From Solirubrobacteraceae bacterium (GTDB lineage: Bacteria > Actinomycetota > Thermoleophilia > Solirubrobacterales > Solirubrobacteraceae), in assembly GCA_036271815.1 (NCBI GenBank), contig DATAZX010000013.1, positions 16,545 to 80,544 of the forward strand: a stretch of 64,000 bases of DNA, in the 5' to 3' direction. Numbering within the stretch: the stretch's first letter is position 1; every line of letters starts with the position of its first letter. A program made the translations under genes and the position numbers. Positions 9,939 to 59,623 of the stretch are shown here, piece by piece. The notes below the pieces were generated by a model. The model did not search any database and was not told where the DNA came from. It worked only from the letters and a program-made list of their open reading frames with translations.

Positions 9939-9957
9939 CAGCGCACGCTGGGATCTG

Positions 9958-9993: not shown

Positions 9994-10017
9994 ATTGACA
10001 GCAGGACGGAAGCTTCA

Positions 10018-10088
10018 CTGGGGAGCCAGGATTCGAACCTGGACGAGCACTTCCAAAGAGTGCCGTGCTGCCATTACACCACTCCCCA
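10018..10088 (-). tRNA. tRNA-Gln (anticodon UUG)
   Basis: UGGGGAG acceptor with a U1-A72 pair, D-loop AAUGGCA, anticodon arm GCACU-CUUUGGA-AGUGC, T-arm CCAGG-UUCGAAU-CCUGG and G73. No encoded CCA. Confidence 0.9.
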
Positions 10089-10135
10089 GTAATTCGGCCA
10101 CAGGGCCTCGGACAAGATAACCCTAGGATGCGCGG

Positions 10136-44550: not shown

Positions 44551-44841
44551 TCAAGCCGGGGGAGGAGGCGGCGGCGGGCGCCAGGGCTCGCCGGGCTTGC
44601 GCGACGGGGGCGTCCAGCCCTTCGCGGTCATGCCGAGCGTGTTCATCGCGCGCTCCTTGACCGTCCACGGCAGGCGCCGGTACAGCGGCACGAACAGCGT
44701 CCGCCACAGCGTGCCGCCGGACTCGCGGTAGGGCGCCACCGTCGACGGCTGGTCGCGCCCGATCTCGCTCAGCACGGCGAGGCGCAGGTAGTGCTCCGAG
44801 CGCTCCCGCAGGTTGCGCTTGGCGTCCGAGACCGAGCTCAC
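44551..44841 (-). CDS. small hypothetical protein (96 aa) ending in a poly-Pro tail; last gene of the long minus operon
   Basis: GTG start overlapping the upstream stop (GTGA). VSSVSDAKRNLRERSEHYLRLAVLSEIG...TLWRTLFVPLYRRLPWTVKERAMNTLGMTAKGW...PPPPPPPA. Confidence 0.55.
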   Translation of the reverse strand: MSSVSDAKRNLRERSEHYLRLAVLSEIGRDQPSTVAPYRESGGTLWRTLFVPLYRRLPWTVKERAMNTLGMTAKGWTPPSRKPGEPWRPPPPPPPA

Positions 44842-46193
44842 GTCGCCACCACCAGCTCGTTCGCGCGCTGCGCCGCCAGCGCGTTCTGCGCCGCGATCGA
44901 GATCGGCTCGAAGAGGGCGCCGATCGGCGGCGAGTAGATGTTCTCCATGTAGGCGAGGTCGTACAGCGTCGCGCCGCGCTTGGCCGCGAACGCGAGGAAG
45001 TCGCAGCGCTCCTTGACGCCCTCGCCGCCGTGGATGACGCCGCCGATCAGCCGCAGCGTGCCCGGCTCGGCGAGCAGCTTGACGAACGTCTTCGTCGCGC
45101 CCGGGAAGTAGCGCGCCTTCGTGACGCCGACGCCCTTGGCGAGCACGTACGGGATTCCGATCGACTTGGCGAGGTTCTCGCCCATCGAGAAGCCGCCGAT
45201 CGTGTAGTCGCCGGCGACCATGCCCCACGGCACCCACACCGGGTCGTAGGCGAGGTCGGAGCCCGTGATGTTGAACGCCGCGACCCGGCCCTGGGCGTAC
45301 GCGTGCGCGCCCGTGAGCCCGACGATCGGGACCATGTTCAGGCCGTGCGGGACCTCGATGACGTCGCCCGCCGCCCACACGCCCTTCGCCGACGTGCGCA
45401 TGTGATCGTCGACGACGACCGCCCCGGTCGTGCCGAGCTTCAGGCCCGCGGCCTCGGCGAGCGCGGTGTTCGGGACCTTGTGCAGGCCCGTCACGACCGC
45501 GTCGCATTCGATCACGCCGTCGGACGTCGTGACGGCGCGGACGTGCCCGTCGGCGTTGCCGTCGAAGGACTCGAGCCGCGTACCGAGGTGCAGCTTCACG
45601 CCGCGCGCCTCGAGCGAGTCGTGGACGGGCTTGGCGACGTCGGGATCGAGGATCTCGTGCAGCACCCAGGGACCCTCGTCGACGAGGTCGACCTGCAGCC
45701 CGCGGTGCGCCAGCGCCCCCGCCATCTCGACCGCGATCGGGCCGCCACCGTGGACGACGACGCGCTTCATGTCGTCGAGCTTCTCGTCGAACTCCATCGA
45801 CTTGCGGATGTCCTTGACGTAGTGCAGCCCGTCGAGGTTCGCGCCCGGCACCTTCGGCTGCTCCCAGAAGAAGCCGGTGCAGAGGATCAGCTGGTCGAAG
45901 CCCTCCGGCTGGTTGCGGACCGTGATCGTGCGGCGGTCGAGGTCGATGTCGGTGACGGTCGTCTCCATGCGCATGTCGAGGCCGTCCTCCTCGTAGCGCG
46001 CGACGGTCGAGAGGAAGAGGTCGTCGAACTTCGGGATCTCCCTGCCGTGCACGAAGGGGATCCCGCACGGCGAGTAGGCGATGTCCGAGAACTCCGTGAA
46101 CACGCTCACCTTCAGGGCCGGGTTCAGGCGTTTGGTGATGGTGGCGGCTGCCGTACCCGCGCCGCCACCGCCGATGACGATCACGCGCTCCAT
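44838..46193 (-). CDS. FAD-dependent pyridine nucleotide-disulfide oxidoreductase (NADH oxidase / CoA-disulfide reductase-like, single redox Cys)
   Basis: VIVIGGGGAGTAAA (FAD), YSPCGIPF (the redox-Cys position of Nox/CoADR enzymes), VVVHGGGPIAVEMAG (NAD(P)H) and GVWAAGDV. Confidence 0.85.
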   Translation of the reverse strand: MERVIVIGGGGAGTAAATITKRLNPALKVSVFTEFSDIAYSPCGIPFVHGREIPKFDDLFLSTVARYEEDGLDMRMETTVTDIDLDRRTITVRNQPEGFDQLILCTGFFWEQPKVPGANLDGLHYVKDIRKSMEFDEKLDDMKRVVVHGGGPIAVEMAGALAHRGLQVDLVDEGPWVLHEILDPDVAKPVHDSLEARGVKLHLGTRLESFDGNADGHVRAVTTSDGVIECDAVVTGLHKVPNTALAEAAGLKLGTTGAVVVDDHMRTSAKGVWAAGDVIEVPHGLNMVPIVGLTGAHAYAQGRVAAFNITGSDLAYDPVWVPWGMVAGDYTIGGFSMGENLAKSIGIPYVLAKGVGVTKARYFPGATKTFVKLLAEPGTLRLIGGVIHGGEGVKERCDFLAFAAKRGATLYDLAYMENIYSPPIGALFEPISIAAQNALAAQRANELVVAT

Positions 46194-47425
46194 GATGGTT
46201 CCTCTCGGTCGTTGACAATCAGATCTGAGATCTCCTCGCGGCGGCGATGCAGGCGCCACGTGCCCCCGTCGCGCGCGACGATCGCCGGGCGCAGGTCGCC
46301 GAACTGCGTCGACTGCACCTGGTTGTAGGCGCCGACGTCGCGGGCGATCAGCACGTCGCCCGGGGCGAGCTCGCCGAGGCGGGCGGCGGGGGCGAGGACG
46401 TCGATGTTCAGGCACAGCGGCCCCGCGACGAGCGCCGGTGAGGCCGTGGCGTCGCCTCGCGGTCGCAGGGGCTCCAGGCGCGGCCACGCCCACAGGGCGC
46501 TGGCGAGCAGGTTCGTGCCGGCGTCGACGACGGCGCAGATGCTCGCGTCGGCGAGGGTCTTGACGGCGACGACCGTGCAGGCGAGGTCGACCGCGTCGGC
46601 GACGAGCGCGCGGCCCGGCTCGAGCAGCAGGCGCCCGTCGAAGCCCGCGCCGCGCAGGGCGTGGGCGACGGCGGCGGCCGTTGCCGTGGCGGCCGTCGAC
46701 GGCGCCGCCGGCCAGCCGCCGCCGAGGTCGATCGTCGTGACGCCGAGCTGGGCGGCGAGCCCGGCGAGCGTCGCGGCGGCCTGGGCGTGGACCGCCGGCG
46801 ACTTCGCCCACGCGACGCGGACGTTGGCGGCGAGGTTGTCCGCGCGCTCGCCCCCGGCGCCGGCACCCGCGCCGGCATCGGTGGGAGCCGTGAAGTCGGT
46901 CGAGACGAGGTGCACGGACAGCGCCTCGAGCGTCAGCCCGAGCTCGATCGCGCGGCGACCCGCGGCGACCACGTCCGCGGGGGCGATCCCGAAGCGGCTC
47001 GCCTGACCCTCCGGGCCGGGCAGCCCGACGCGGATCCCCGCCCGCTCGACGCCCGCGAGCGCGAGCCGTCGCAGCTCGGGCGCGCTGTCGACGATCACCA
47101 GCGCGCCGTCGGCGGCGGCACGCTCGAGCAGTGCGTCGGGCTTGACCGGGCCGTTGACCGTGATCCGCGGCCCGTCGACGCCGACGACGTCGCGCGCCAG
47201 CGCGTACTCCGCGGCGCACACGACCTCGGCCCCCGCGCCGTCGTCGGCGAACGCACGCAGGAACGCCGTCGTGCGGTTCGTCTTGTAGGAGTAGGAGATC
47301 TCGGTGTCTGGCCAGGCCGCCGACCACGCCTCGCGCATGCCGGCCAGCCGCTCGCGGGCGCGGTCGACGTCGGCGAGCCAGAGCGGGGAGCCGTGCTCGG
47401 CGACGAGCGCGGCGACGGCGCTCAC
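46181..47425 (-). CDS. fold-type III PLP-dependent decarboxylase (Orn/DAP/Arg decarboxylase family 2)
   Basis: YSYKTN (PLP Lys), IDLGGGWP, LLLEPGRALV and GPLCLNIDVL. GTGA overlap with the upstream gene. Confidence 0.85.
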   Translation of the reverse strand: MSAVAALVAEHGSPLWLADVDRARERLAGMREAWSAAWPDTEISYSYKTNRTTAFLRAFADDGAGAEVVCAAEYALARDVVGVDGPRITVNGPVKPDALLERAAADGALVIVDSAPELRRLALAGVERAGIRVGLPGPEGQASRFGIAPADVVAAGRRAIELGLTLEALSVHLVSTDFTAPTDAGAGAGAGGERADNLAANVRVAWAKSPAVHAQAAATLAGLAAQLGVTTIDLGGGWPAAPSTAATATAAAVAHALRGAGFDGRLLLEPGRALVADAVDLACTVVAVKTLADASICAVVDAGTNLLASALWAWPRLEPLRPRGDATASPALVAGPLCLNIDVLAPAARLGELAPGDVLIARDVGAYNQVQSTQFGDLRPAIVARDGGTWRLHRRREEISDLIVNDREEPSWSA

Positions 47426-48783
47426 AGTCCCTCCCGCACGGTCGCGGCGAGGTGCAGCGCCCGCGGCGTCCCCTTGCTGTCCAGCAGCGCGGCGACCGGC
47501 TCGCGCCAGCGCCCGGATGCCGCCTCGGCGATCGCCTCGGGCAGCACGCTGCGCAGGTGGCCCATCGCCCACGGGTCGGGTCGCGAGAGGTTCAGGCGCA
47601 GCGTCGTCGCGGCGCCCGTCGCGCCCATCCCGTCGCCGGGGTACGTGGCCACGTGGCGTGCGAACAGGGCGACCATCAGCTCCTGCGCCGTGACGCCGGC
47701 ACCGGACGTGTCCAGCGCGCAGGCCAGGCCGCGCACGGGCGAGGTCGTCAGCGCCACCCCGTCGACGGCGGCGAGCGTGGCCTTCAGATGCGAGAGGTTG
47801 CCGCGCACGATCCGCTCGGCGTGCGGCAGGTAGTCGACGTCCTCGAGCGCGCCGAGCGCGCCGTGCTGGGCGATCAGGCTCGTATTCAGGCGCGTCAGCG
47901 CGGCCTTCAGGCGCAGGCAGCTGCGCATCAGGCGCGACGGCCCGGCGAGGAAGCCGATCCGCGCACCCGCCATCCCGAAGCAGTGCGAGACCGAGAACGT
48001 CGCGACGGCGTTCTCGGTCAGCCGCAGGGCGGGCAGCGAGGCGAACGGGACGTCGGGATCGATGACGAGTGGCGCGTGCGTGACGTCGTGGATCAGCAGC
48101 AGGTCGTGCTCGTCGGCGAGCCGCGCGAGGGCGGCGAGCTCGTCCGGGGTCTGGACGGTCCCGTACGGGTTCAGCGGGTCGACGATCACGATCGCGCGGG
48201 TGCGCGGCGTGATCGCCGCGGCGACGAGGTCGGGGTCGAGGCGAAAGCCGGTGCTCGCGTCGATCGAGACGGTCACCGGCACGGCGCCCGTGGCGATCAC
48301 GGCCGACGGCACGTGGAAGTAGCCCGGATCGGACAGGATGACCTCGTCGCCCGGGCCGGCGACGGCCATCAGCGACAGCGCGATGCCGGCCTGCGCGCCC
48401 TCCGTCCCGATGACCTCGAAGCTCTCGTCGCGCGGGCGGCCGAGCACGCGCGCGGCGGATTCGCGCAGCGGCTCGACGAGATCCGGGCTGTACTGGTTGA
48501 GGTGCTCGGCGGTGACGGCGTCGCGCATCGCGTCGACCGCGCTCGCGGGCGGGCCGGCGAAGCAGGTCAGCCAGCCGAGGTCGGCCCACGTCGCGGGATC
48601 CAGCCGCGTCGTGCCGCCGGGGTACATCGTCGCGGGGTCGAAGCCGACGATCGCGATCGCGTCGCGGTAGGTGAGGTAGTTCCACATCGCGTGGTGCGAG
48701 CGCTCGAGCGCGATCAGCCGCTCGGACGCAAGCTGCGGCGTGCTGTCGGGGTCGGTGCCCCAGGTGAGGACGGAGGAGCTCAT
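47422..48783 (-). CDS. class I/II aminotransferase-fold protein with His at the Schiff-base lysine position
   Basis: DPLNPYG and LLLIHD fit the fold. The usually invariant S-x-S-K-x-F-x-M-x-G-x-R-x-G block reads SVSHCFGMAGARIG (His codon CAC, complement of 47983-47985). Confidence 0.8.
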   Translation of the reverse strand: MSSSVLTWGTDPDSTPQLASERLIALERSHHAMWNYLTYRDAIAIVGFDPATMYPGGTTRLDPATWADLGWLTCFAGPPASAVDAMRDAVTAEHLNQYSPDLVEPLRESAARVLGRPRDESFEVIGTEGAQAGIALSLMAVAGPGDEVILSDPGYFHVPSAVIATGAVPVTVSIDASTGFRLDPDLVAAAITPRTRAIVIVDPLNPYGTVQTPDELAALARLADEHDLLLIHDVTHAPLVIDPDVPFASLPALRLTENAVATFSVSHCFGMAGARIGFLAGPSRLMRSCLRLKAALTRLNTSLIAQHGALGALEDVDYLPHAERIVRGNLSHLKATLAAVDGVALTTSPVRGLACALDTSGAGVTAQELMVALFARHVATYPGDGMGATGAATTLRLNLSRPDPWAMGHLRSVLPEAIAEAASGRWREPVAALLDSKGTPRALHLAATVREGL

Positions 48784-49682
48784 GCGGCCGCACCCCGCTC
48801 GGCGGTGGTGCCGGCACCGGCGCCGGCATCGGGGTCGCGCACGAAGCGCATGACGCGGTAGATCGCGTTGCGATCCGAGGTCACGGTCGCCGGCGCGTAC
48901 CCCGCAGCGCGCGCGTAGCCCTCGATCTGCCCGGCCGGGCGCAGCCGCCACACGCAGCGCCCGCCCTCGGCGTTGCGCCACACGCGGGCGATGTACTCGA
49001 TCTCCGGGTTGTCGACCTGGACGTTGCAGACGATCTGCGCCGGCGCGACGGTCTCGGCGAGGTCGAGGAAGTGGCGCGCGATGAGGGCGTCGTCGTGGTA
49101 GATGCCGTACAGCCCGAGCTCGCAGACGACGTCCGGCCGCGGGCGCAGCGTCAGCAGGGCATCGCGATCGAAGGCGCTCGCCCGGCGCGTCGTCATGCGG
49201 TCCTCGACGCCGAGCTCGCGAGCCGCCGCGGTCGCCTGCTCGAGCGCGGCCGCGTCGATGTCCCACAGGACGGCGGTGACGGCGGGGCGCCGCGCGATCG
49301 CGCGCAGCAGGTATGGGCTCGGGCCGGCGGCGAGGTCCGCGACGACCGGTCGATCGCCGGTGGTGGCGTCGATCGCCTCGAGCACCGCCGTCTCCGCGAG
49401 GCCGCGGATGTCGCGAAACGCCTGGCAGGTCGGGCGGCTCAGCAGCCGGCGGTCCAGCCGCCGTCCGATCGTCGTGCGCCCGGCCGCGCGGTTGGCGTAG
49501 ACGTGCGCCATGAACGGCCCGGAGTCGAAGCCGTGGCGGTGCCCGATGCGCGTCCCCTCGGACACGCACGCGCTCGCCCGCGAGGCGAGCGACAGCGCCG
49601 CGAAGCGCCACGCCCGCGGCGAGCTGCGCGGCAGCTCGGCCCGCAAAGCCTCAAATCGCCGGGCTGAGAGCTCAGCCGACAT
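48780..49682 (-). CDS. class I SAM-dependent methyltransferase
   Basis: Rossmann-type motif I VVADLAAGPSPYL, an acidic post-I residue (WDID) and motif-III-like VCELGLYG. Confidence 0.7.
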   Translation of the reverse strand: MSAELSARRFEALRAELPRSSPRAWRFAALSLASRASACVSEGTRIGHRHGFDSGPFMAHVYANRAAGRTTIGRRLDRRLLSRPTCQAFRDIRGLAETAVLEAIDATTGDRPVVADLAAGPSPYLLRAIARRPAVTAVLWDIDAAALEQATAAARELGVEDRMTTRRASAFDRDALLTLRPRPDVVCELGLYGIYHDDALIARHFLDLAETVAPAQIVCNVQVDNPEIEYIARVWRNAEGGRCVWRLRPAGQIEGYARAAGYAPATVTSDRNAIYRVMRFVRDPDAGAGAGTTAERGAAA

Positions 49683-50208
49683 ACAACCCCGTCTCGACGA
49701 GCTCGCGGCGGCGGTACAGCTCGTGCGCGTCGCCGGCGGCGCTGTGCGGTCGCGTCATCAGCGTGGCGAGGCGCTCCTGGGCCGCGTCGTTGTCGGCGAT
49801 CACGACCGCGAGCGTCTGCGCGTCCTCGCCCGCGGCGCCGGCGGCATACGTATCGAGCAGCTGGCCGAAGTGATCGAGCGAGCCGGCGGCGTAGGCGACG
49901 AGCTCCTCGAAGTCCGCGATGACCTCGATGCGCTCGTAGATCGCGTCGCCCTCGGGCGGCGCGACGTACGCGTCGGGGTCGACGCCGTGCGCGAGCGCGC
50001 GGACGCGGAAGAGGTTCATGTGGCGCGCGTTCGCCGCGACGAGCTCGGCGAGCAGCTGCTTGGCCTCGGGGTCGTCGGTGCCCGGGACGCGCGCCGAGAA
50101 CAGGTCGACCCACCGGCGCATGCCGTAGGCGTGGCGGGCGAAGACCTTGCCGATGCGCTCGGGGTCCTCTCCGAGCACGGTGAGCAGTTCGTCGCGGTTA
50201 GTCAGCAT
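49672..50208 (-). CDS. all-helical hypothetical protein (178 aa); ferritin / haem-oxygenase-like fold suspected
   Basis: Helical heptad-like composition with scattered E/H/D (ARHAYG, ANARHMNLF, GSLDHF). No firm motif. Confidence 0.5.
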   Translation of the reverse strand: MLTNRDELLTVLGEDPERIGKVFARHAYGMRRWVDLFSARVPGTDDPEAKQLLAELVAANARHMNLFRVRALAHGVDPDAYVAPPEGDAIYERIEVIADFEELVAYAAGSLDHFGQLLDTYAAGAAGEDAQTLAVVIADNDAAQERLATLMTRPHSAAGDAHELYRRRELVETGLYVG

Positions 50209-50632
50209 CGGTGGGCTCCGGTTCGGAGAGGTCGACCGCGACGTAGGTGACGTCGAGATCCGGGGAGAGCATGTTCGAGACCCAGCAGAACGGCTTCGCG
50301 CGGGTCACGAGAGCCTCGAGGTCGTGCTCGCCGGCGCGCGCCGCGACCTCGATGCGCAGCGTCCCGTAGCGCAGCTCGCGCCCGGCGCGCTCGGCGTCGA
50401 TCGTGACGCGCAGGCCGGGAAGCTCGACGTCGCGCTTGGCGGCGACGTGCGCGACGGCCAGGCAGAAGCAGCTCGCCAGCGCCGACAGCATGAGCTCGGT
50501 CGGCATCATGCCCGCGTCCGCGCCGCCGACCTCGACCGGCTCGTCGACGCGGACCTCGTGCCCGCGCGCGGTCGCCGTGGCGCCGAGGTCGCCCGTCCAC
50601 ACCGCCTGCACGTGGCGTGCGTCGCGGGCCAC
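50198..50632 (-). CDS. OsmC/Ohr-family peroxiredoxin-like protein
   Basis: PTELMLSALASCFCLAV and ...AKPFCWVSN carry the two conserved OsmC cysteines. Confidence 0.85.
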   Translation of the reverse strand: MARDARHVQAVWTGDLGATATARGHEVRVDEPVEVGGADAGMMPTELMLSALASCFCLAVAHVAAKRDVELPGLRVTIDAERAGRELRYGTLRIEVAARAGEHDLEALVTRAKPFCWVSNMLSPDLDVTYVAVDLSEPEPTDAD

Positions 50633-51799
50633 CTACACCGCCCCGATCCGCTCGGCCTGAAACGACCGGTACGCGTCCTCGTGGGCGCCGGCCGCCGTGT
50701 CCCACCCGTAGGCCGCGACGACGCGCTGCCCGCCGGCCAGCAGCCGCGCGCACAGCGCCGGGTCACGCGCGACGCGCGCGAGCGCGGCCCCGAGGGCGTG
50801 CCCGTCGCCGGCGGGGCACAGCAGGGCGTTCTCGCCGTCGGCGAGGAAGGTCAGGAAGACGTCGAGCTCGGATGCGACGACGGGCAGCCCGGCGGCGAGC
50901 GCCTCGAGCGCGACGAGGCCGAAGCCCTCCTTCGTCGACGGGAACGCGAAGACGTCGGCGGCGCGGTAGTGGCGCTCGAGCTCGGCGGGGCTGACCGTGC
51001 CGGCGCGGCGGACGTGCTCGTCGACGCCGAGCTCGCGCGCCCGGGCCGCGAAGCGATCGATCTCGTCGCGGTAGTCGAAGAGGGTCGCGCCGCCGACGAC
51101 CAGCAGCAGCGGGTCGCGCTCGGGCACGAGCTCGCGCAGGCGGGCGAAGCCCTCGAGCAGCGTCAGCGAGCCCTTGCGCGGCTCGATCCCGCCCACGGTC
51201 AGCACGGTCAGGCGGTCTGCGAGCCGCAGGGCGTCGCGATCGGCCGCACGCTCGGCGTCGTCGCGAGAGCAGCGGAAGCGGGCCTGGTCGACGCCGTTTC
51301 GCACGAGCTGGGCCTGCACGCGGAACTCGACCGCGAGACGGTCGATCCACGGGTGCGAGACGCAGAGCACGAGGTCGGGGGCGAGGATCGATCGATCCTG
51401 GCACGCGATCAGTGATGGGGAGATGAACTCGTCGACGTGGTGGACCGTGCGCACGACGTGGCCGACGACGCCCTCGTCGCGCAGGTCCAGCGCCGCGTTG
51501 GCCGAGATGCAGTCCTGTGCGTGGACGATGTCGAAGTCGCCCTCGGCCAGCAGCGCCCGCAGGCCCTCGCGGTAGGCGTCGACCATCGCGAGGATGCGCT
51601 CGTCGAACTGCGCGTGGGTCGGGACGTGCTCGACGAGGTGCGTCGCGACCGCGGTGTCGCGAAAGAAGCGCTCGCCCGGCTGCGCGAGCGCGCAGACGCA
51701 GACGTCGTGCCCGCGCTCGGCCAGTGCCTCGGCGACCGCGAGCGCGTGCTCGACGCCACCGCGCGGCTTGACCGAGTACGTGAGCATCGCGACCTTCAT
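50633..51799 (-). CDS. GT4-family glycosyltransferase (MSMEG_0565-like by context)
   Basis: MKVAMLTYSVKPRGGVEHALAVAEALAERGHDV is the N-terminal GT-B start. The C-terminal E-x7-E region reads FPSTKEGFGLVALEALAAGLPVVAS. Confidence 0.85.
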   Translation of the reverse strand: MKVAMLTYSVKPRGGVEHALAVAEALAERGHDVCVCALAQPGERFFRDTAVATHLVEHVPTHAQFDERILAMVDAYREGLRALLAEGDFDIVHAQDCISANAALDLRDEGVVGHVVRTVHHVDEFISPSLIACQDRSILAPDLVLCVSHPWIDRLAVEFRVQAQLVRNGVDQARFRCSRDDAERAADRDALRLADRLTVLTVGGIEPRKGSLTLLEGFARLRELVPERDPLLLVVGGATLFDYRDEIDRFAARARELGVDEHVRRAGTVSPAELERHYRAADVFAFPSTKEGFGLVALEALAAGLPVVASELDVFLTFLADGENALLCPAGDGHALGAALARVARDPALCARLLAGGQRVVAAYGWDTAAGAHEDAYRSFQAERIGAV

Positions 51800-53283
51800 G
51801 CGGCTGCTCCGTTGCCGAGCGCACGCAGGGCGAGCCGCGTCGCGGCGGCATTGGACGGCGCGACGATCGCCCCGGCGTCGCGCAGGATCCTCATCTGGCG
51901 GACCGCGTCCTGCGGGTCGCCGGGGGTTCCGCAGACGCGCGCCAGCACGACGGCGTCCCTCGCAGCGAGGGCGATCGCGTCGGCCAGCCCGCCCGCGGGA
52001 TCGGCGTGCCCGCCGTGGCCGAGGACGACGTCGAGCAGCACGCAGCCGACGGCGTCGTCTGCGGCGGCGTCCGCGAGGAAGCCGAGCCGCACGTCGAGGT
52101 CGACCATCGGGTGCGGGCGACCCTGCGTGTACTCCTCCTCGCCGAGGTCGAGCACGGCGTGGCCGCCGTTGCGCTCGTCGGGACCGTGTCCGACGTTGCC
52201 CTCGAGCGGGCCGAGCTCGCGCTCGAGCAGCGTCACGGCCTCGTGCGCCAGCGAGCCGCCGGAGTACAGGCCCAGCAGGCGCCGGCCGCTCGCGCGCTCG
52301 CGCGCCGCGTCGACCGCGGACTCGAGCTCGCCCAGGTCCTCGACCGCGGTCCCGGCCGCCGCGCGCGCCGCGGCCTCGAGCGTGTCGTGGATCTCGAACG
52401 GCGCCTCGCCGCCCTCCCAGCCGACGAACGCCGCGACGACGCGCTTGCCGTCGGGCAGGTCGTCGGCCAGCGACGCGACGACCTCGGGTGCCGGGGGCTT
52501 GGAGACGAGCAGCAGCGTCTCGGTCTCGTCGTCGGCGGCGAGCATGTGCATCGCCTGGCGGAACATGATCCCGCCGATCGCGGCCGACAGGTCGCGCCCG
52601 CCGACGCCGACGATCTGCGACACGCCGACGCCGGCCGCGTCGAGCAGGCAGGCCGATTCCTGGGCGCCGGTGCCCGCGGCGGCGACGATGCCGACGGGTC
52701 CCGCGCTGACGACGTTCGCGAAGCCGAGGCCGACGTTGCCGAGCATCGCCGTCCCGCAGCCGGGACCCATCACGAGCAGGCCGAGCTGCGCGCCGCGGCG
52801 CTTGAGGGCGAGCTCGTCGGCGAGCGAGACGTGGTCGGAGAAGAGGAAGACGTGCATGCCGGCGCTGAGCGCGCGGTGCGCTTCGAGCGTCGCGTACTCG
52901 CCGGCGACGGAGATCAGCGCGACGTTGGGATCGGCGAGCCGGCGGCCGGCGGAGACGAGCGAGCGCGGCGCCTCGCGCTCTGCGGTCACACCCGAGCCCG
53001 AGCCGCTGCCCGCGCCGCCGCCGCTGGACAGCTCGTCCTCGGCGCGCTCGAGCATCTGCGTGGCCGTCTCGTCGCTGTCGGTCTCGACGGCGACGACGAT
53101 GTCCGAGGGACCCGCCTGGCCGACGTCGACGCCGCGCGCGGTCAGCAGCTCGAGGTTGGCCGCCGTGCCCATCCCCATCTCACAGCCGCTGACGCCGTCG
53201 GCGCCGCGCAGCCCGCGGGCGATGCCCATCAGCTTGACGCTGTCCGCGTAGCGGTTCGCGATGACCTTCGCGTGCCAGCTCAC
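51796..53283 (-). CDS. fdrA: FdrA-family protein (succinyl-CoA-synthetase-like CoA-binding / ligase fold)
   Basis: VSWHAKVIANRYADSVKLM..., ...VMGPGCGTA..., ...GIVAAAGTGAQE... and ...VGVGGRDLS... The start is set at the GTG at 53283, overlapping the carbamate kinase stop (GTGA). Confidence 0.8.
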   Translation of the reverse strand: MSWHAKVIANRYADSVKLMGIARGLRGADGVSGCEMGMGTAANLELLTARGVDVGQAGPSDIVVAVETDSDETATQMLERAEDELSSGGGAGSGSGSGVTAEREAPRSLVSAGRRLADPNVALISVAGEYATLEAHRALSAGMHVFLFSDHVSLADELALKRRGAQLGLLVMGPGCGTAMLGNVGLGFANVVSAGPVGIVAAAGTGAQESACLLDAAGVGVSQIVGVGGRDLSAAIGGIMFRQAMHMLAADDETETLLLVSKPPAPEVVASLADDLPDGKRVVAAFVGWEGGEAPFEIHDTLEAAARAAAGTAVEDLGELESAVDAARERASGRRLLGLYSGGSLAHEAVTLLERELGPLEGNVGHGPDERNGGHAVLDLGEEEYTQGRPHPMVDLDVRLGFLADAAADDAVGCVLLDVVLGHGGHADPAGGLADAIALAARDAVVLARVCGTPGDPQDAVRQMRILRDAGAIVAPSNAAATRLALRALGNGAAA

Positions 53284-54227
53284 AGCAGCGCCGCCTGCGG
53301 CTCGGCCTGGATCCAGGTGCCGTCCTCGCCGCGGATCGCGGCCAGCAGCGAGTCGGCGTCCGTGACGATCGCGGCCCCCCCGCTGCCGGTCGCGAAGCGC
53401 TCGGCGGACTCGATCTTCGGACCCATGCTGCCGGGCGGGAACTCCCCGTCCTCCAGGCGCCGGTGCGTCTCGTCCGTGCTCATGTGAAACAGCGGGCGCT
53501 CCCAGCGGGTGCCGAAGTCCGAGACGACGCGGGGAACGGCGGTCAGCAGCACGAGGATGTCGCAGCGCAGCGCGATGCCGAGCTCCGCCGAGCAGCGGTC
53601 CTTGTCGATGACCGCCGCCATGCCCGCGAGCGTGCCGCCGCGGGTGCTGACGGGAATCCCGCCGCCGCCGCCGGCGATCACGATCGAGCCGCTCTCGGCG
53701 AGCACGCGGATCGCCTCGAGCTCGAGGATCTCGACGGGCTTCGGGCTCGCGACCATGCAGCGCCAGCCGCGCCCGGAGTCCTCGCCGACGACCCAGCCAC
53801 GCTCGCGCGAGAGGCGCCGCGCGTCCTCCTCGGTGTAGAACGGGCCGACCGGCTTGGTCGGGTTGTCGAACGCGGGGTCGTCGTCGTCGACGCGCACGCG
53901 CGTGAGGATGGTCGCGGTCGGCGCGTCGGGATCGATCTCGGCGATGCTCGTCTGCAGCAGGTACCCGAGCTCGCCCTGCGTCATCGCGCCGAGCGCGTGC
54001 AGCGGCAGCCCCGGCACCTGCGGCTCGCCCATCGCGTGCTGCAGCATGAGCGTGCCGACCTGCGGGCCGTTGCCGTGCGTGAGCACGACCTCGTGGCCGT
54101 CGCGGCGCAGCGCGACGACGGCCTCGGCCACGGGCCGGGCGCTGTCGAGCTGGTCGGCCCAGGTGCCGCGCTGGTTCTCCTTGAGCAGGGCGTTGCCGCC
54201 CACGGCGATGATGATGCGCACTTTCAA
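53280..54227 (-). CDS. arcC: carbamate kinase
   Basis: IAVGGNALL, THGNGPQVG and GGGGIPV motifs. Confidence 0.9.
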   Translation of the reverse strand: MKVRIIIAVGGNALLKENQRGTWADQLDSARPVAEAVVALRRDGHEVVLTHGNGPQVGTLMLQHAMGEPQVPGLPLHALGAMTQGELGYLLQTSIAEIDPDAPTATILTRVRVDDDDPAFDNPTKPVGPFYTEEDARRLSRERGWVVGEDSGRGWRCMVASPKPVEILELEAIRVLAESGSIVIAGGGGGIPVSTRGGTLAGMAAVIDKDRCSAELGIALRCDILVLLTAVPRVVSDFGTRWERPLFHMSTDETHRRLEDGEFPPGSMGPKIESAERFATGSGGAAIVTDADSLLAAIRGEDGTWIQAEPQAALL

Positions 54228-54832
54228 TCAACTCCTCTGACCATGAACCAGAGTGCGCGCGCGGGCGCCTCGGACGGATTTGCCCACATGTGCGGCCGGT
54301 CGGTGCGAAAGTGGATCGAGTCGCCGGGCTGCAGGTCGGTGACGTCGTTGTCGACGGTCACCCGCAGGGTGCCCTCGAGCAGGTAGATGAGCTCCTCGCC
54401 CGGGTGGCGCATCGGGTCGGGTCCGCTCGTGGCCAGCGACTCGACGAGCGCCTCGGCGCCGGCGAGGCGGTAGCGGCCGTAGCGCCCGGAGACGTTGTCG
54501 AGCGCGATCCCGCTCTTCGAGGTGTACAGGCGCGCCCGCAGGTCGCCGCGGACGACGATCGCGGCGGGCGCCGTGACGTCCTCGTCGATGAAGTAGCTGA
54601 CGCTCGTGCCGAGCGCGGCCGCGACCTTCATGAGCGTCGCGATCGTCGGCGTCATGCCGCTCTTCTCGATCTTGTGGACCGAGGCGGTCGAGACGCCGGC
54701 GCGGCGCGCCAGCTCGGCCAGCGACCAGCCGCGCTCGGCGCGTGCCAGGGCCAGCTTGGCGCCGAGCGCGGAGACCGTGCGCTCGATGTCAGGGAGCGTC
54801 AGCGGGGGGATCTTCTCGGAGCGCGTTTCCAT
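54224..54832 (-). CDS. XRE-family HTH regulator with a C-terminal cupin domain
   Basis: LALARAERGWSLAELARRAGVSTASVHKIEKSGMTPTIATLMKVAAALG is the HTH_3 domain. The cupin reads ...HPGEELIYLLEGTLRVTV...GDSIHF. First gene of the minus operon, with a 4-nt overlap with arcC. Confidence 0.85.
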   Translation of the reverse strand: METRSEKIPPLTLPDIERTVSALGAKLALARAERGWSLAELARRAGVSTASVHKIEKSGMTPTIATLMKVAAALGTSVSYFIDEDVTAPAAIVVRGDLRARLYTSKSGIALDNVSGRYGRYRLAGAEALVESLATSGPDPMRHPGEELIYLLEGTLRVTVDNDVTDLQPGDSIHFRTDRPHMWANPSEAPARALWFMVRGVD

Positions 54833-54914
54833 GTCGTATCGGATAGTACACACCAGTCAAGGTCGCAACAAACTCGAAACATTCCGGCGGATCGGGCTGT
54901 TTGGGGGGTCGGAC

Positions 54915-54943
54915 TTGACGTGCGGCCCAGGTCGCGCTAGGAA
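54915..54943 (+). promoter_or_regulatory. candidate promoter TTGACG-N17-TAGGAA for the plus operon
   Basis: Seen directly in the 190-bp divergent region. The region also holds an 8-bp inverted pair, TATCGGAT (54837-54844) / ATCCGATA (54953-54960). Confidence 0.3.
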
Positions 54944-55022
54944 TGCATCCACAATCCGATAAGGGCTCCGGCGAGGTCGGGGTCCGGCTGGCTGCGAGGC
55001 CGGCTCGACAGAGGGAGACGGC

Positions 55023-55496
55023 ATGGCCGATCTGACAGAACCGGGAACCGAGCTCTTCAACACCAGCGAGAAGCTCTTCGAGGACATCAAGGCGGAGCCT
55101 GGCGAGAAGGCGTACACGTTCATGCACACGGTCCCCTACGAGGGCTCGGTCGGCCTCGTGAACCTGCTGACGACGACCCGCGTCCTGCGCAAGGGCTTCG
55201 ACACGAGCCTGATCCTGTACGGCCCCGGCGTCCTCATGGCCTCGGGTACTCGCGGCTTCCCGAGGGTCGGCGACGAGGCCTTCCCCGGTCACATGGCGAT
55301 CAACAACCAGCTCGCGAAGTTCATGGAGGAGGGCGGCAACGTCTACGCCTGTCGCTTCGCCGCCGGTGCGCTGTATGGCTTCCCCGAGGCGAACTTCATG
55401 CCCGGCGTCAAGCCCTTCCACCCGCTCGACGTGCTCGACTCGGCCCTGACGGCGTGGCGCCAGAAGGCCTTCCAGCTCAACACCTGGACCCTCTAG
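55023..55496 (+). CDS. 157-aa conserved protein in the position of Nit1C Hp1 (MSMEG_0572/Sll0783-like; DsrE-like pattern)
   Basis: ...[13 protein letters not shown]...[16 protein letters not shown]... resembles DsrE/DsrF-type folds. Its composition (K/F/N/Y-rich) is unlike the surrounding genome. The family assignment is from memory of cluster architecture. Confidence 0.7.
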
Positions 55497-55500
55497 GACC

Positions 55501-56127
55501 ATGCTCGTGCTGGACCGGGACGGAGCGGTAGCCGCGTGGCGGCGGGCCGAGGGGCGCATCTACCCCTCGGTGATGATGAACGCCTCGCTGTACCAGGAGT
55601 ACGTGGCGGTCGTCCGGGGGATCGCCGGGGAGCTCCTCGACGTCCACAGCGAGGACGACCTCGTCGTCGCGTGGCACGAGCGCGGCGACCTCGTTCGCAT
55701 GGTGATCGACCGCCTCGCTCCGTCGATGGCCCAGCTCATGGACCGCGAGGCGGTGCGTGACGCGGCGTTCTGCCATCGCCATCGCGAGATCACGCGCGAG
55801 ACGGGCAAGGAGCTCGCCGCGCAGCGCCTCGCGGACGCCAAGCGCAGCGGCGCCGAGTGGGTCACGTTGTTCGACGACGTGACCCCGCTCGGCGCCCAGC
55901 GCCTGGAGATGCACGTCCGCAGCGGGCGTGCCCTGCACACGAGCACGAGCCTGCCGCTCGACGGCACGCACCCGGAGTGGGAGCTCGAGGTCGTGCAGCT
56001 CGACCCCAACGACGGCGTCTGGTTGTTGGACCAGGCCCCACTGCTCAAGCCGCAGAAATTCGACCGTCAAGACGAATGGGAGGCGCGCATCCAGCAGGCC
56101 CGATCCTCCTTCGGAGGTGACCAGTAG
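55501..56127 (+). CDS. hypothetical protein (208 aa)
   Basis: Protein-like composition, 4-nt gap to the upstream gene. No motif recognised. Confidence 0.6.
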   Translation: MLVLDRDGAVAAWRRAEGRIYPSVMMNASLYQEYVAVVRGIAGELLDVHSEDDLVVAWHERGDLVRMVIDRLAPSMAQLMDREAVRDAAFCHRHREITRETGKELAAQRLADAKRSGAEWVTLFDDVTPLGAQRLEMHVRSGRALHTSTSLPLDGTHPEWELEVVQLDPNDGVWLLDQAPLLKPQKFDRQDEWEARIQQARSSFGGDQ

Positions 56128-56987
56128 TGCCGACCCACCCGAAGAAGATCATCGACGCGCACTGCCACATCGGGGAGATCCCGCCGTGGAAGTTCTACGA
56201 CCTCGAGCATCCGGTGAAGCCGACGGTCTACGACTACAAGGACACGAAGTCCTTCGTCAAGAACCACATGCAGGAGTTCAAGGTCGAGCGCGCGCTCGTG
56301 ATGTCGAACTACGGCGTGCCGATCCCCGAGCTGTCGTTCGACCTCAACGACGTGGTGCTCGAGGCGTCGACCTCCAACGACCGCATCCTCGCGGCGCTGT
56401 GGGTCTCGTTCCTGCCGCGCAACGCCGAGCTGACGCGCAAGGCGCTGAAGCTCGTGACGGAGTCGAGCGTCGTGGCGCTGAAGACGACGTTCCTGCTCGG
56501 CGGCAACCCGGACCCGGGCACGTGGGACGAGGAGACGACGGCGATCGCCGACGAGTGCTTCGACATCTGCGAGAAGCACGACCTGATCTTCCACTTCCAC
56601 ACGAGCCCGGGCGGCAACTCGGACTTCGGCAACTTCATCCCGCTCGTCGAGAAGTACGGCAAGCGCTGCAAGATCTACCTCGTGCACATGGGCGGCGGCG
56701 TCTCGGGCCACATCAAGCTCGTGCCGAAGTTCCTCAAGTGGGTGGAGGAGGGCTACAAGGTGTACACCGACACCTCGTGGGCCGTCGGCTTCGGCGCGCG
56801 CTGGCTGCTGACCGAGATCGAGAAGACCGGCGTCGGCGGCGATCGCGTGTTCTTCGGCTCCGACGAGCCGTGGTCGGACTTCGACTCGGAGTACTGGAAG
56901 CTCAACGGCATCCGCGGCATCTCGCAGGAGCTCAAGGACAACGTCTTCTGGCGCAATTTCGAGACGCTCTACGACGGTCGTGGCTGA
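56127..56987 (+). CDS. amidohydrolase-2 (TIM-barrel metal-dependent hydrolase) family protein
   Basis: IIDAHCHIG (HxH), ...LVHMGGG... and ...FFGSDEPW (metal Asp). GTG start overlapping the upstream TAG. Lys/Phe/Tyr-rich. Confidence 0.8.
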   Translation: MPTHPKKIIDAHCHIGEIPPWKFYDLEHPVKPTVYDYKDTKSFVKNHMQEFKVERALVMSNYGVPIPELSFDLNDVVLEASTSNDRILAALWVSFLPRNAELTRKALKLVTESSVVALKTTFLLGGNPDPGTWDEETTAIADECFDICEKHDLIFHFHTSPGGNSDFGNFIPLVEKYGKRCKIYLVHMGGGVSGHIKLVPKFLKWVEEGYKVYTDTSWAVGFGARWLLTEIEKTGVGGDRVFFGSDEPWSDFDSEYWKLNGIRGISQELKDNVFWRNFETLYDGRG

Positions 56988-58149
56988 GTCCGGCGTCAGC
57001 GACGTGCCGGTGCCGCTGTCGCTCGACGATCGCAGGCTGCTCGTCGAGCTGCAGTCCTTCGGCGTCCGCGTGGTCGGGGGCGACGGCGCCCTCGGCCGCC
57101 GCGGCGGCGCGGGCCCGTCCGACGCGCTGTTCCTCTACGTGCGCGGGCTGCCGCTGACGGTGCCCCAGCACGCCGAGTACGTGACCAGCTCGCCCTACAC
57201 GCTGCGCCTCGACGGCGCGAAGCCTTCGCTGTATCGCGACGACGACCTCGTCGGCGTCGTCGGGCTCCCGCGGCGGCCGAAGATCTACGACATGCAGACC
57301 GCGGATGGGATCCCGTACTGGAAGATCGCGCTGCTGCACCTCGACTCGATCGCCTCGACCGTCGTGCAGAAGTGCATCTACTGGGGCACGCCCGAGCAGT
57401 GCGGCTTCTGCGGGATCGAGCTGACGCGCGGCGAGCAGACGATCCCGGTCAAGACGCCGGCGCAGCTCGCGGAGGTCTGCAGCGCGGCGCACCGCCTCGA
57501 CGGCGCGGTCGACGCGACGCTGACGACCGGCTCGATCAACCGCCGCGACCGCGGCGCGCTCTACATCTCCAAGTGCGCGGCGGCGATCAAGGACGCCTGC
57601 GGCATGCCCGTGCAGGTGCAGTTCGAGCCGCCGGACGACCTCGCCGTGCTCGACGAGGTGCACCGCGCCGGCGTCGACGCGGTCGGCATCCACATCGAGA
57701 CGTTCGATCCCGACGTGCTCGCGCGCGTCGCGGCCGGCAAGGCACAGTGCGGCGTCGAGGGCTACTTCCGCACGTGGGAGCGGGCCGTCGAGGTCTTCGG
57801 CCGCGGGCGCGTGACGACGTACGTGATCCTCGGCATGGGCGAGCGTCGCGAGCTCATCGAAGAGGGCTGCCGGCGGGCGATCGAGATGGGCGTGTACCCG
57901 TTCGTCGTGCCGATCCGGCCCGTCCGCGGGACGCTGCTGCAGGACACGCCGACGCCCGACCCGGACTACGTCGCGGCGATCTACAAGAGCGTGTCGGCGA
58001 TGCTCGCCGCGTCCGGCCTCGACCACTCCGAGGCCGCCGCCGGCTGCGCGCGCTGCCAGGCCTGCTCCGGGCTGTCCGCCTGGGAGCGGGTCTTCGAGAA
58101 GGAGGCCAACGGTGGCCATTTCGAGCTCGGCGCCGTCCACGCTTCCTGA
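56980..58149 (+). CDS. radical SAM-type protein (MSMEG_0568-like) with unusual Cys spacing
   Basis: The cluster region reads C-IYWGTPEQ-C-GF-C (Cx8Cx2C), not CX3CX2C. TIM-barrel-like GIHIETFD follows, with a C-terminal CARCQAC (CX2CX2C). The first ~125 aa precede the Cys cluster. Confidence 0.7.
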   Translation: MAESGVSDVPVPLSLDDRRLLVELQSFGVRVVGGDGALGRRGGAGPSDALFLYVRGLPLTVPQHAEYVTSSPYTLRLDGAKPSLYRDDDLVGVVGLPRRPKIYDMQTADGIPYWKIALLHLDSIASTVVQKCIYWGTPEQCGFCGIELTRGEQTIPVKTPAQLAEVCSAAHRLDGAVDATLTTGSINRRDRGALYISKCAAAIKDACGMPVQVQFEPPDDLAVLDEVHRAGVDAVGIHIETFDPDVLARVAAGKAQCGVEGYFRTWERAVEVFGRGRVTTYVILGMGERRELIEEGCRRAIEMGVYPFVVPIRPVRGTLLQDTPTPDPDYVAAIYKSVSAMLAASGLDHSEAAAGCARCQACSGLSAWERVFEKEANGGHFELGAVHAS

Positions 58150-58654
58150 CCGCGCACCGCTCGCGTGCGGGCTCGCGCGCGGGCGCGCCGAGCTCGACGA
58201 GCACTTCGCGGTGCGCCGGCGGATCTTCGTCGCGGCGCAGGGGCTGTTCGCCGACGACGACCGCGACGCCCACGACGACGACCCGGCGACGCTGCACGCG
58301 GTCGCGCGCTCGGGCGGGGACGTCGCGGGTGCCGTGCGCCTGTACCCGCTCGACGGCGACGGCCTGTGGAAGGGCGACCGGCTCGCCGTCCTGCCCGCCG
58401 AGCGCGCCCTGCAGCTCGGCGCGATGCTCGTGCGCTTCGCCGTCCGCACGGCGGGAGAGCGCGGCGGCCGGCTGATGATCGCCCAGGTCCAGGTCCCGAA
58501 CGTGCGCTTCTTCGAGCGTCTGGGCTGGAGCGCCGACGGCGACGTGACCCCGATGTTCGGCGTCGATCACCAGCCGATGGCGATCGCGCTCGGCGCCGGC
58601 AGCGGTCGCGGTCGTGGCCGCACCGCCGGCGCCGGCCTCAGCCCAGGCCGGTGA
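58112..58654 (+). CDS. GNAT-family N-acetyltransferase (MSMEG_0567/Sll0786-like)
   Basis: ...AVRLYPL...GDRLAVLPAERALQLGAMLVRFAV...FFERLGW. GTG start preceded by AGGAGG, overlapping the radical SAM gene by 38 nt. Confidence 0.8.
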   Translation: MAISSSAPSTLPDRAPLACGLARGRAELDEHFAVRRRIFVAAQGLFADDDRDAHDDDPATLHAVARSGGDVAGAVRLYPLDGDGLWKGDRLAVLPAERALQLGAMLVRFAVRTAGERGGRLMIAQVQVPNVRFFERLGWSADGDVTPMFGVDHQPMAIALGAGSGRGRGRTAGAGLSPGR

Positions 58655-59573
58655 GCGGGGCGATGTCGAAGTCCCAGACGGTGGCGCCGGCGCCGCCGCT
58701 CTCGAGCTTCAGCGCCCGCGAGTCGTCGAAGTGCCCGCACGGCTCGCAGGCGAGGCCGCGGCGCGTGAAGACCTCGCAGGCGGCCCTCGCGTGCTCGGGC
58801 GCGGCGGCGAGCAGGAAGCCGAAGCTCGGGAACGTCTTCAGCCAGCGCTCCACGGAGACGCCGTCGGGACGCGGGAGCCGGTCGACGTCGAGCACCGCGC
58901 CGCAGCGCGCGGCCTCGAGCAGCTGCAGCAGCGAGCCGGCGGCGCCGGGCATCGAGACGTCGCGCGCGGCGTGGCAGAGCCCGACCTCGGCGACCTCGGC
59001 GAGCGCCTCGCCGTCGTCGCGCAGGTGCTCGGGCGCGCGATCGCGCAGCGACGTGAAGAAGTCCGTGTCGTCGCCCATGTACCGGCCCTCCAGGCAGAAC
59101 GCGCCGAGCAGGACGTCGCCGGGGCGCGCCGCCGCCGCGCGCAGCGGCCGGCGCGCGATGCCCGTGCACGTCGCCGACAGCGACGGCGCGCCGCCCATCG
59201 TCAGGTGCCCGCCGACGACCTCGACGCCGAGCAGGTCGGCCGCCCACGCCAGCCCCTCGAGCACGAGCTCGGCATGGGCCTCGTCGGGGCTGACGAGCAT
59301 GTCGAGGATCGCGAGCGGGCGCCCGCCCATCGCGCGCACGTCGGAGACGTTCGTCACGACGGCCGACGCGCCCGCCGCGCGCGGCTGCGCCGCCACGAAC
59401 GACGGCAGGATCGCCTCGCCGCAGAGCACGATCCACTCGTCGCCGTGCGCGATCAGCGCGCCGTCGTCGCCGTCGCCGACCGGGCCGAGCCTCTTCACGA
59501 GCCGCAGGTCGCGCTTTGCGTGCAGCGCGGGCGAATCTCGGACGAGCGCCGCGAGGGCTTCAGGGTCGGGCAT
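58638..59573 (-). CDS. AIR-synthase-related protein (PurM/ThiL-like fold; sll0787-like)
   Basis: GDGDDGALI, ...NVSDVRAMGGRP..., ...VVGGHLT... and ...RDVSMPG.. Its 3' end overlaps the convergent GNAT gene by 17 nt. The start is ATG 59573, or alternatively GTG 59621. Confidence 0.8.
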   Translation of the reverse strand: MPDPEALAALVRDSPALHAKRDLRLVKRLGPVGDGDDGALIAHGDEWIVLCGEAILPSFVAAQPRAAGASAVVTNVSDVRAMGGRPLAILDMLVSPDEAHAELVLEGLAWAADLLGVEVVGGHLTMGGAPSLSATCTGIARRPLRAAAARPGDVLLGAFCLEGRYMGDDTDFFTSLRDRAPEHLRDDGEALAEVAEVGLCHAARDVSMPGAAGSLLQLLEAARCGAVLDVDRLPRPDGVSVERWLKTFPSFGFLLAAAPEHARAACEVFTRRGLACEPCGHFDDSRALKLESGGAGATVWDFDIAPLTGLG

Positions 59574-59623
59574 CGCGGCGAATCTAGTGGACGAGCACAA
59601 CCAATCGGAATCGGAGGCCACAC

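Follow-up and report, generated by a model that had tools for sequence, protein, structure and literature searches.

A conserved histidine replaces the Schiff-base lysine in a class I aminotransferase-fold family of Nit1C/gpr-type gene clusters

Which reaction can a protein of the aminotransferase fold catalyse once the lysine that anchors its cofactor has been replaced? This question is raised by a gene, here called ATH, in a 64,000-nucleotide stretch of a Solirubrobacteraceae bacterium (assembly GCA_036271815.1, contig DATAZX010000013.1, positions 16,545 to 80,544), which as a whole is referred to as the window and has a G+C content of 72%. The best protein hits (96% identity to a protein of a Solirubrobacteraceae metagenome-assembled genome) assign it to a soil-dwelling member of the Solirubrobacterales. 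The defining trait of class I/II aminotransferases is a lysine, set in an S-x-S-K block, that forms an internal aldimine with pyridoxal 5'-phosphate (PLP); in ATH this position is occupied by histidine. Within the aminotransferase fold, a Lys-to-His replacement has so far been found only in a few sugar 3-dehydratases, where it converts transamination into deoxygenation dependent on pyridoxamine 5'-phosphate (PMP). What is new here is that the amino-acid (class I) branch of the fold has made the same switch on its own; throughout a large clade of bacteria that live in soil and sediment and span several phyla, the His form is fixed. The gene and the block in question are as follows.

47422-48783, minus strand: ATH, a class I aminotransferase-fold gene without the Schiff-base lysine, 453 amino acids (open reading frame and translation)
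47953-47994, minus strand: motif S264-V-S-H-C-F-G-M-A-G-A-R-I-G277, the counterpart of the 'S-x-S-K...R-x-G' block of class I aminotransferases
47983-47985, minus strand: CAC codon of His267, aligned on the catalytic lysine that forms the PLP Schiff base

The open reading frame (ORF) begins with ATG at 48783 and ends with a stop codon at 47422-47424. Its translation agrees with the original prediction that the histidine codon is CAC and that two substitutions separate it from a lysine codon (AAA or AAG). A separate Logan assembly from a soil metagenome run spans 44551-49432 with two mismatches, which leave the His codon unaffected. Comparison with close orthologues gave ratios of nonsynonymous to synonymous substitution (dN/dS) of 0.17-0.26, indicating purifying selection on ATH.

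Alignment and modelling place this histidine in the position of the catalytic lysine. The Pfam model Aminotran_1_2 (PF00155) covers residues 78-399 with a single continuous match of 121.6 bits (gathering threshold 19.7). In phmmer alignments with the solved aspartate aminotransferases (AspATs) 1J32, 1BKG and 1BJW, His267 falls exactly on the catalytic lysine ('fsvsHcfgmagaRigf' in the query against 'gfaKtyamtgwRvgf' and 'gaaKafamtgwRigy'), and Arg275, eight residues further on, falls on the phosphate-binding arginine. The same alignments set Asn205 (DPLNPYG) on the asparagine that contacts O3' and Asp233 (IHD) on the aspartate that contacts the pyridine N1. A MAFFT alignment with generic class I aminotransferases again put His267 in the lysine column. 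An AlphaFold2 model of ATH, computed as a monomer without ligand, had a predicted local distance difference test score (pLDDT) of 89.9 and a predicted template-modelling score (pTM) of 0.91. Foldseek identified it as a class Ib AspAT fold, with a template-modelling score (TM) of 0.87 to AspAT 1J32; its top structural neighbours were all amino-acid aminotransferases, and a search with the family profile returned the same proteins. The replacement of the Schiff-base lysine by histidine, first seen in the motif alone, was thus recovered by pairwise and multiple alignments, and the model confirmed the AspAT fold.

Two further segments bear on the active site.

48076-48087, minus strand: Asp233 to His236 (D233-V-T-H236); Asp233, the pyridine-N1 ligand, is kept (alignments)
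47596-47598, minus strand: Arg396 (LRLNLS), invariant across the family (multiple alignment)

By alignment, ATH keeps the cofactor and carboxylate ligands Asn205, Asp233, Arg275, Ser264/Ser266, Tyr98 and Arg396. It had been proposed that the rest of the fold signature is intact. This held for DPLNPYG (Asn205) and IHD (Asp233), but not for the O3'-binding tyrosine of aminotransferases (DEIY), which is also a histidine here (His236, in DVTH), a hallmark of the whole ATH family. The pairwise alignments stop short of Arg396, but the match of this residue to the 'RLS' motif in the multiple alignment suggests that it is the alpha-carboxylate arginine.

How widely is the histidine kept? S-x-S-H was present in 120 of the 120 best listed relatives of the window protein (69-96% identity), and equally in all 120 of the best listed relatives of a Thermodesulfobacteriota orthologue that is itself 46% identical to ATH. 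Among the matches listed, the invariant histidine extends to relatives with as little as 43% identity. A scan of one genome per species of the GTDB taxonomy yielded 63 family loci, 48 of which encode His at position 267, the remaining 15 being Lys-type. The His-type genomes come from at least four lineages (Solirubrobacterales, Thermoleophilia, Thermodesulfobacteriota/Dadabacteria and Dehalococcoidia). Lysine in orthologues had been named beforehand as a possible refutation, and the survey instead gave histidine in all 240 listed relatives and in the 48 GTDB genomes. His267 is therefore a fixed trait and not a lesion. The view that the window carries a lesion peculiar to this strain, an error of sequencing or assembly, or a decaying gene has nothing in its favour beyond the unusual residue; it is refuted by this distribution, by the independent assembly and the need for two nucleotide substitutions, and by a dN/dS of about 0.2 with an intact reading frame; we regard its probability as negligible.

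The family is compact. An exhaustive search of 1.8 billion cluster representatives returned 55 at E < 1e-30, ATH family members among them; past this point the scores blend with those of aminotransferases at large. Among the best 150 cluster representatives (50% identity), the catalytic column held Lys in 91 and His in 20, and every His case fell inside the ATH family. The generic aminotransferases in this set have Lys, bar a few other residues (e.g. Arg in P0266), which we put down to misalignment, frameshifted ORFs or a genuine variant. Two database 'fusion' proteins from high-GC contigs (P0150 and P0206), in which stretches of methyltransferase, ATH and reductase are joined, look like the result of ORFs called in a shifted or wrong frame and not like real fusions, and were set aside.

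Loss of the canonical lysine could in principle be made good by another lysine, and a second possible refutation was a compensating lysine elsewhere in the active site. None was found: the window protein contains three lysines in total, and only Lys293 is conserved. This residue and the nearby Cys289 are located as follows.

47917-47919, minus strand: Cys289, present in 46 of 46 cluster-embedded His-type proteins (types A, B and C, described below) and in 0 of 15 Lys-type proteins
47905-47907, minus strand: Lys293, the one lysine that is conserved, positioned where helix 283-296 ends and also present in Lys-type relatives

Could Lys293 be a relocated Schiff-base lysine, so that ATH would otherwise be a normal PLP enzyme? 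It is invariant, and by alignment it would lie roughly at the position of Arg292* of AspAT, a residue that reaches the partner active site. However, Lys293 is equally invariant in 15 of 15 Lys-type relatives, which have the canonical lysine as well, and so did not originate as a replacement. AspAT Arg292* binds the distal group of the substrate from the partner subunit and does not bind the cofactor. We consider this reading very improbable.

The family has a distinctive anatomy. An N-terminal extension of about 75 residues (…H-x-M-W-N-Y-x-T-Y-R-D-A-I…) and a C-terminal helical extension of about 40 residues are conserved, and His236, Gln131, His157, Lys293 and Arg396 are common to the family, while Tyr98, Tyr155, Asn205, Arg275 and Arg396 are its family-wide invariant ligands. 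Upon this shared frame, His-type and Lys-type proteins differ by a coordinated switch, from H267/D233/C289/R298/N300 in the cluster-embedded proteins to K267/N233/A289/K298/H300 in the sister clade. This coordination points to two functional states and not to decay. Cys289 is the sole universally conserved cysteine, as Cys268 occurs only in type A and Cys74 only in types A and B. Asp233 is kept in 46 of 48 His-type proteins; the two outliers combine H267 with N233. One of these His/Asn proteins (locus L049, region 2574-11317) is encoded outside the cluster, directly downstream of a 2181-residue polyketide synthase, and the other (L001, region 2261-5215), also outside the cluster, lies beside a B12-binding radical S-adenosylmethionine (SAM) enzyme and an ABC transporter.

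The Lys-type sister clade is itself odd for class I aminotransferases in having Asn in place of the Asp that usually protonates the PLP pyridine nitrogen (motif F-N-N-I-T-H-N). Examples are found in Pararhizobium antarcticum (L067, 9968-11359), Oceanobacillus (L060, 9935-11296) and Dongiaceae (L051-L055; L054, 9977-11350). Their genes adjoin those for GntR regulators, Na+-symporters, proline-racemase-like proteins and pyrroline-5-carboxylate (P5C) reductases, a context that points to amino-acid catabolism. In a neighbour-joining tree rooted on generic aminotransferases the Lys clade was nested within the His radiation, in a topology that is not robust; the tree would allow His to be ancestral and Lys to have been regained in the sister clade.

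The absence of the residue that defines PLP catalysis also raises the possibility that ATH is a pseudoenzyme, serving as a non-catalytic scaffold or as a regulatory or ligand-binding subunit, for example as partner of the PLP decarboxylase to which it is tightly coupled. A precedent exists in Ser4/Ser5, a lysine-less aminotransferase-like subunit in a hetero-oligomer (PMC11726168). Against this, the cofactor and substrate ligands of ATH, for which a scaffold has no need, are invariant across phyla, as are His267 and Cys289. ATH is full length and, unlike Ser4, carries additional conserved N- and C-terminal extensions, and the decarboxylase is absent beside ATH in several loci. Given these invariant residues and a dN/dS of about 0.2, the pseudoenzyme option offered in the original prediction is disfavoured, and we rate it as improbable.

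We found that the two states of the protein differ in genomic setting as well as in sequence. At least one cluster partner lies within 10 kilobases of the gene in 47 of 48 His/Asp-type loci and in 0 of 15 Lys-type loci. The exception (L035, Dehalococcoidia) still has an SsuD-like monooxygenase downstream of ATH (5636-6751). In the window, ATH belongs to an operon of 11 genes that runs from 54832 to 44551 on the minus strand, next to a divergent gene set. The other operon members, from upstream to downstream, are:

54224-54832, minus strand: helix-turn-helix (HTH)/PuuR-like regulator, in the upstream part of the operon
53280-54227, minus strand: carbamate kinase
51796-53283, minus strand: FdrA/AllF
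50633-51799, minus strand: MSMEG_0565-family GT4 glycosyltransferase
50198-50632, minus strand: OsmC-like peroxiredoxin
49672-50208, minus strand: 178-residue protein with no Pfam match and a heme-oxygenase/TenA-like helical fold (AlphaFold2 and Foldseek)
48780-49682, minus strand: SAM-dependent methyltransferase, Pfam Methyltransf_20
46181-47425, minus strand: type III (ornithine/diaminopimelate/arginine) PLP decarboxylase, which keeps its own lysine (YSYKTN)
44838-46193, minus strand: flavoprotein resembling coenzyme A (CoA)-disulfide reductase (CoADR)/NADH oxidase, with a single redox Cys motif (YSPCGIPF)
44551-44841, minus strand: conserved 96-residue ORF with a C-terminal poly-Pro tail (…PPPPPPPA), the last operon gene in type A

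The divergent set comprises:

55023-55496, plus strand: MSMEG_0572/Sll0783 family
55501-56127, plus strand: 208-residue protein without an assigned family
56127-56987, plus strand: Amidohydro_2
56980-58149, plus strand: MSMEG_0568 radical SAM protein
58112-58654, plus strand: MSMEG_0567 GNAT protein
58638-59573, minus strand: sll0787 AIR-synthase-like protein
59624-61051, plus strand: AllG
61237-61968, plus strand: AllH

Five signature families of the Nit1C/gpr cluster (sll0783-0787; MSMEG_0565-0572) are present in the window. Four NCBIfam models scored above their cut-offs (TIGR04044, 207.6 bits against 109.9; TIGR04043, 383 against 304; TIGR04045, 97 against 68; TIGR04047, 391 against 260), and TIGR04049, matched by the AIR-synthase-like protein, fell slightly below (278 against 321). 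A Nit6803-type nitrilase and the MSMEG_0569 flavoprotein had no match among the cluster genes scanned, at 44551-61968. Judged by its gene families, this region is a nitrilase-less variant of the Nit1C/gpr cluster. It differs from the canonical cluster, for which no aminotransferase-like gene has been described, in having, instead of the nitrilase and the MSMEG_0569 flavoprotein, ATH, the decarboxylase, OsmC, the CoADR-like reductase, Amidohydro_2, carbamate kinase and the AllFGH-like genes. In M. smegmatis, nitrogen starvation induces the canonical cluster, which is linked to resistance to peroxide (PMC6039565). In E. coli, AllFGH acts as oxamate carbamoyltransferase (PMC11326118). Literature searches for the product of the Nit1C cluster returned nothing relevant.

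Synteny around ATH is kept in three lineages. Type A (Solirubrobacterales) has the gene order of the window. Type B (Thermodesulfobacteriota/Dadabacteria and relatives) has the 178-residue protein, methyltransferase, ATH and decarboxylase, and several of its loci have a further gene separating the last two; in the one examined this is CysK-like (PALP; L033, 11338-12306). Type C (Thermoleophilia/Miltoncostaeaceae) consists of carbamate kinase, ATH, an SsuD-like luciferase-type monooxygenase (for example L058, 11676-12686), decarboxylase, AllF, glycosyltransferase, OsmC and reductase. It has neither the methyltransferase nor the 178-residue protein, both of which adjoin ATH in types A and B only. 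The CysK-like and SsuD-like inserts hint at sulfur chemistry. The most constant immediate neighbour is the decarboxylase, which is adjacent to ATH or one gene away in 39 of 48 loci.

The predicted substrate contacts Tyr36, Tyr39, Arg40, Asp41, Gln131, Lys293, Arg298, Asn300 and Arg396 are identical in types A, B and C. This suggests that the substrate of ATH is probably supplied by the core genes that all three types have in common; the genes found only in some lineages (methyltransferase, heme-oxygenase-like, CysK-like and monooxygenase) are probably not its source. The cluster gene set as a whole hints at a redox-active (perhaps thiol-like) or a carbamoyl/ureido metabolite.

Coupling of ATH to its immediate neighbours, as originally predicted, is real. 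The methyltransferase stop overlaps the ATH start (ATGA), and the ATH stop overlaps the GTG start of the decarboxylase (GTGA); these 4-nucleotide overlaps indicate co-translation of the three genes. The decarboxylase and the CoADR-like flavoprotein overlap by 13 nucleotides. The decarboxylase is of type III and scores 142 bits against the lysA model, whose cut-off is 298, and is thus not a diaminopimelate decarboxylase orthologue. It also contains an Ala/Gly-rich low-complexity insertion (…TDAGAGAGAGGERADNLAANVRVAWAKSPAVHAQAAATLAGLAAQ…). The search for RNA evidence gave a single possible RNA run, with fragments of a relative at about 90% identity, which is suggestive of expression but no proof of it.

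Less can be read from the other operon members. The 178-residue protein gave an AlphaFold2 model with a pLDDT of 94.8, to which Foldseek assigned a TenA/heme-oxygenase-like (CADD-like) fold with weak E-values; a profile search against the PDB gave nothing significant, and there was no Pfam or NCBIfam match. His26, His63, His113 and Asp139 are invariant in this protein, and some sources label its relatives 'rubrerythrin', 'bacterioferritin' or 'ferritin-like'. Wherever its gene occurs, in types A and B, that of the Methyltransf_20 protein accompanies it, and the pair directly precedes ATH. The 178-residue protein may be a metal-dependent oxidase. The methyltransferase had only weak PDB sequence and profile matches, confined to the SAM-binding region (MppJ among them, E 0.0025), which do not suffice to assign it as a keto-acid C-methyltransferase. 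Literature searches on Methyltransf_20/PF12147 returned nothing relevant, and the 96-residue ORF had no family match.

What, then, could ATH do? We hold, with confidence that is evenly balanced, that it is a working but non-standard B6 enzyme of the class I fold, which would bind PLP or PMP non-covalently and use His267 as an acid/base. From the conserved residues we infer that the cofactor would be held by Asn205, Asp233, Arg275, Ser264/266 and Tyr98*, and that Arg396 would bind an alpha-keto or alpha-amino acid whose distal group is polar or anionic. His267, in the place of the lysine, would act as general acid/base in proton transfers at C4' and C-alpha. Cys289 and Lys293, probably contributed by the partner subunit, would help at the distal end of the substrate. 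Without an internal aldimine, normal fast ping-pong transamination would not be expected, and by analogy with ColD and E1 the most likely chemistry would be that of a PMP-ketimine, in which a keto-acid intermediate undergoes either elimination or amination in one direction only. The product or substrate of ATH may be shared with the coupled type III decarboxylase, which would act just before or just after it. Our confidence in any specific reaction is well below that in the general mechanism. A K258H mutant of AspAT reportedly binds its cofactor and has low residual activity, which suggests that histidine is chemically competent at this position.

A more conventional role would be that of an ordinary, if slow, aminotransferase, in which His267 performs the 1,3-proton shift and the product amino acid is passed to the decarboxylase to give an amine. 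ATH has the full aminotransferase ligand set including the putative alpha-carboxylate Arg396, its closest solved relatives are all aminotransferases, and 2-oxo acids are commonly converted into amines by transamination and then decarboxylation. Moreover, the histidine enzyme SpnQ transaminates under some conditions, although the His forms E1 and ColD do not transaminate their substrate (PMC8987622). However, His and not Lys has been kept across a very wide radiation despite the existence of Lys-type relatives within the family, and the co-varying Cys289, Arg298 and Asn300 suggest an altered mechanism. We therefore consider a slow aminotransferase unlikely. A standard ping-pong aminotransferase, already doubted in the original prediction, is unlikely given the replaced Schiff-base lysine and the lack of a compensating one. 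The public labels carried by relatives of ATH ('pyridoxal phosphate-dependent aminotransferase', 'aspartate/methionine/tyrosine aminotransferase') are probably wrong.

Several points weigh against ATH being a non-covalent B6 enzyme as set out above. Literature searches gave no biochemical work on any member of the ATH family. Cofactor binding is predicted from residues, and the placement of Cys289 and Lys293 relative to C4' is likewise predicted. The neighbours of ATH vary by lineage, with methyltransferase and heme-oxygenase-like genes in types A and B, a CysK-like gene in some type B loci and an SsuD-like gene in type C, and the decarboxylase is missing beside ATH in L014, L016 and L021. The cofactor site itself is unusual, with His236 for Tyr and, in some relatives, Asn for Asp, such that analogies with AspAT may mislead.

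A bolder extension of the non-covalent B6 mechanism is that ATH founds a class I-fold family of lysine-less PMP-dependent lyases, independent of ColD/E1, with a step in the biosynthesis or turnover of a hypothetical redox-active metabolite made by Nit1C/gpr-type clusters. We put this forward as speculation that is decidedly unlikely in so specific a form. His267 and Cys289 would then carry out an elimination (of C-O, C-S or C-N) on an alpha-keto-acid intermediate, and the metabolite could be low-molecular-weight and thiol-like, or ureido- or nitrile-related. These hints are drawn from the CoA-disulfide-reductase-like enzyme, the OsmC peroxidase, the DsrE-like MSMEG_0572 and the LipS2-like radical SAM protein, and further from the MshA/BshA-like glycosyltransferase and the carbamoyl-handling AllFGH and carbamate kinase.

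The pairing of His/Asp/Cys with Lys/Asn/Ala in one family offers a natural experiment in how B6 enzymes shift reaction type. The strict tie to ATH also gives a new handle on the Nit1C/gpr cluster. Known since 2005, that cluster has been connected with nitrogen starvation, the use of cyanide and resistance to peroxide. For neither the cluster variant nor a lysine-less enzyme with the class I aminotransferase fold did literature searches find a paper.

Among known systems, the best sequence and structure matches of ATH are the class Ib AspAT, aromatic, prephenate and kynurenine aminotransferases (1J32, 1BKG, 1DJU, 6F5V and 3FVS), with E-values down to 1e-44 against the ATH family profile, TM of 0.8-0.87 and 19-28% identity. 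ATH shares with them the Asn, Asp, phosphate Arg, Tyr* and carboxylate Arg ligands. It differs in His267 for Lys, His236 for the equivalent of Tyr225 and Gln131 for the equivalent of Lys109 (Thermus AspAT), and in its additional N-terminal (about 75 residues) and C-terminal (about 40 residues) extensions. The Lys-type sister clade is closer, with 35-44% identity, the same extensions, His236, Lys293, Gln131 and Arg396, but it keeps the Schiff-base lysine, has N233, A289 and K298/H300, and never occurs in a Nit1C-type cluster.

The PLP cyclases and dehydratases of hydroxy-arginines (GntC, VioD and OrfR types) also have the class I fold and are not aminotransferases, but unlike ATH they keep the lysine. 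GntC and PRK06225 are the best NCBIfam models for ATH (E about 1e-44 to 1e-45), with VioD lower (3e-30). All scores lie far under the cut-offs of the models (153 bits for GntC and PRK06225, against 351-415), so that no NCBIfam model claims ATH, and in the profile search against solved structures AspATs outscored GntC (8FFT).

The only established precedent for the Lys-to-His substitution is provided by ColD, E1 and SpnQ, PMP-dependent nucleotide-sugar 3-dehydratases of the DegT/DnrJ/EryC1 family, which share fold-type I with ATH. In these enzymes histidine replaces the Schiff-base lysine, the cofactor is bound non-covalently and the histidine serves as acid/base, starting elimination from the PMP-ketimine; reversion of His to Lys restores transamination (PMC8987622). 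The analogy with ColD drawn in the original prediction stands for the histidine in the lysine position, as a functional one, but not for the family or its setting, and the dehydratase activity offered there is a hypothesis. ATH belongs to PF00155 (class I) and not to PF01041, to which its match is partial (residues 124-237 of 453; 66 bits, below PF00155) and does not reach the lysine region. ATH keeps the predicted alpha-carboxylate arginine of amino-acid aminotransferases, and no 4,6-dehydratase or other deoxysugar-pathway gene was found near it, although one GT4 glycosyltransferase is present. An E1-type Fe-S enzyme was considered and ruled out, as the conserved cysteines of the ATH family do not include the four-Cys [2Fe-2S] motif of E1 and SpnQ. 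A different family, a retained carboxylate arginine, no sugar context and no Fe-S motif together indicate that the Lys-to-His replacement in ATH is convergent with that in the sugar dehydratases.

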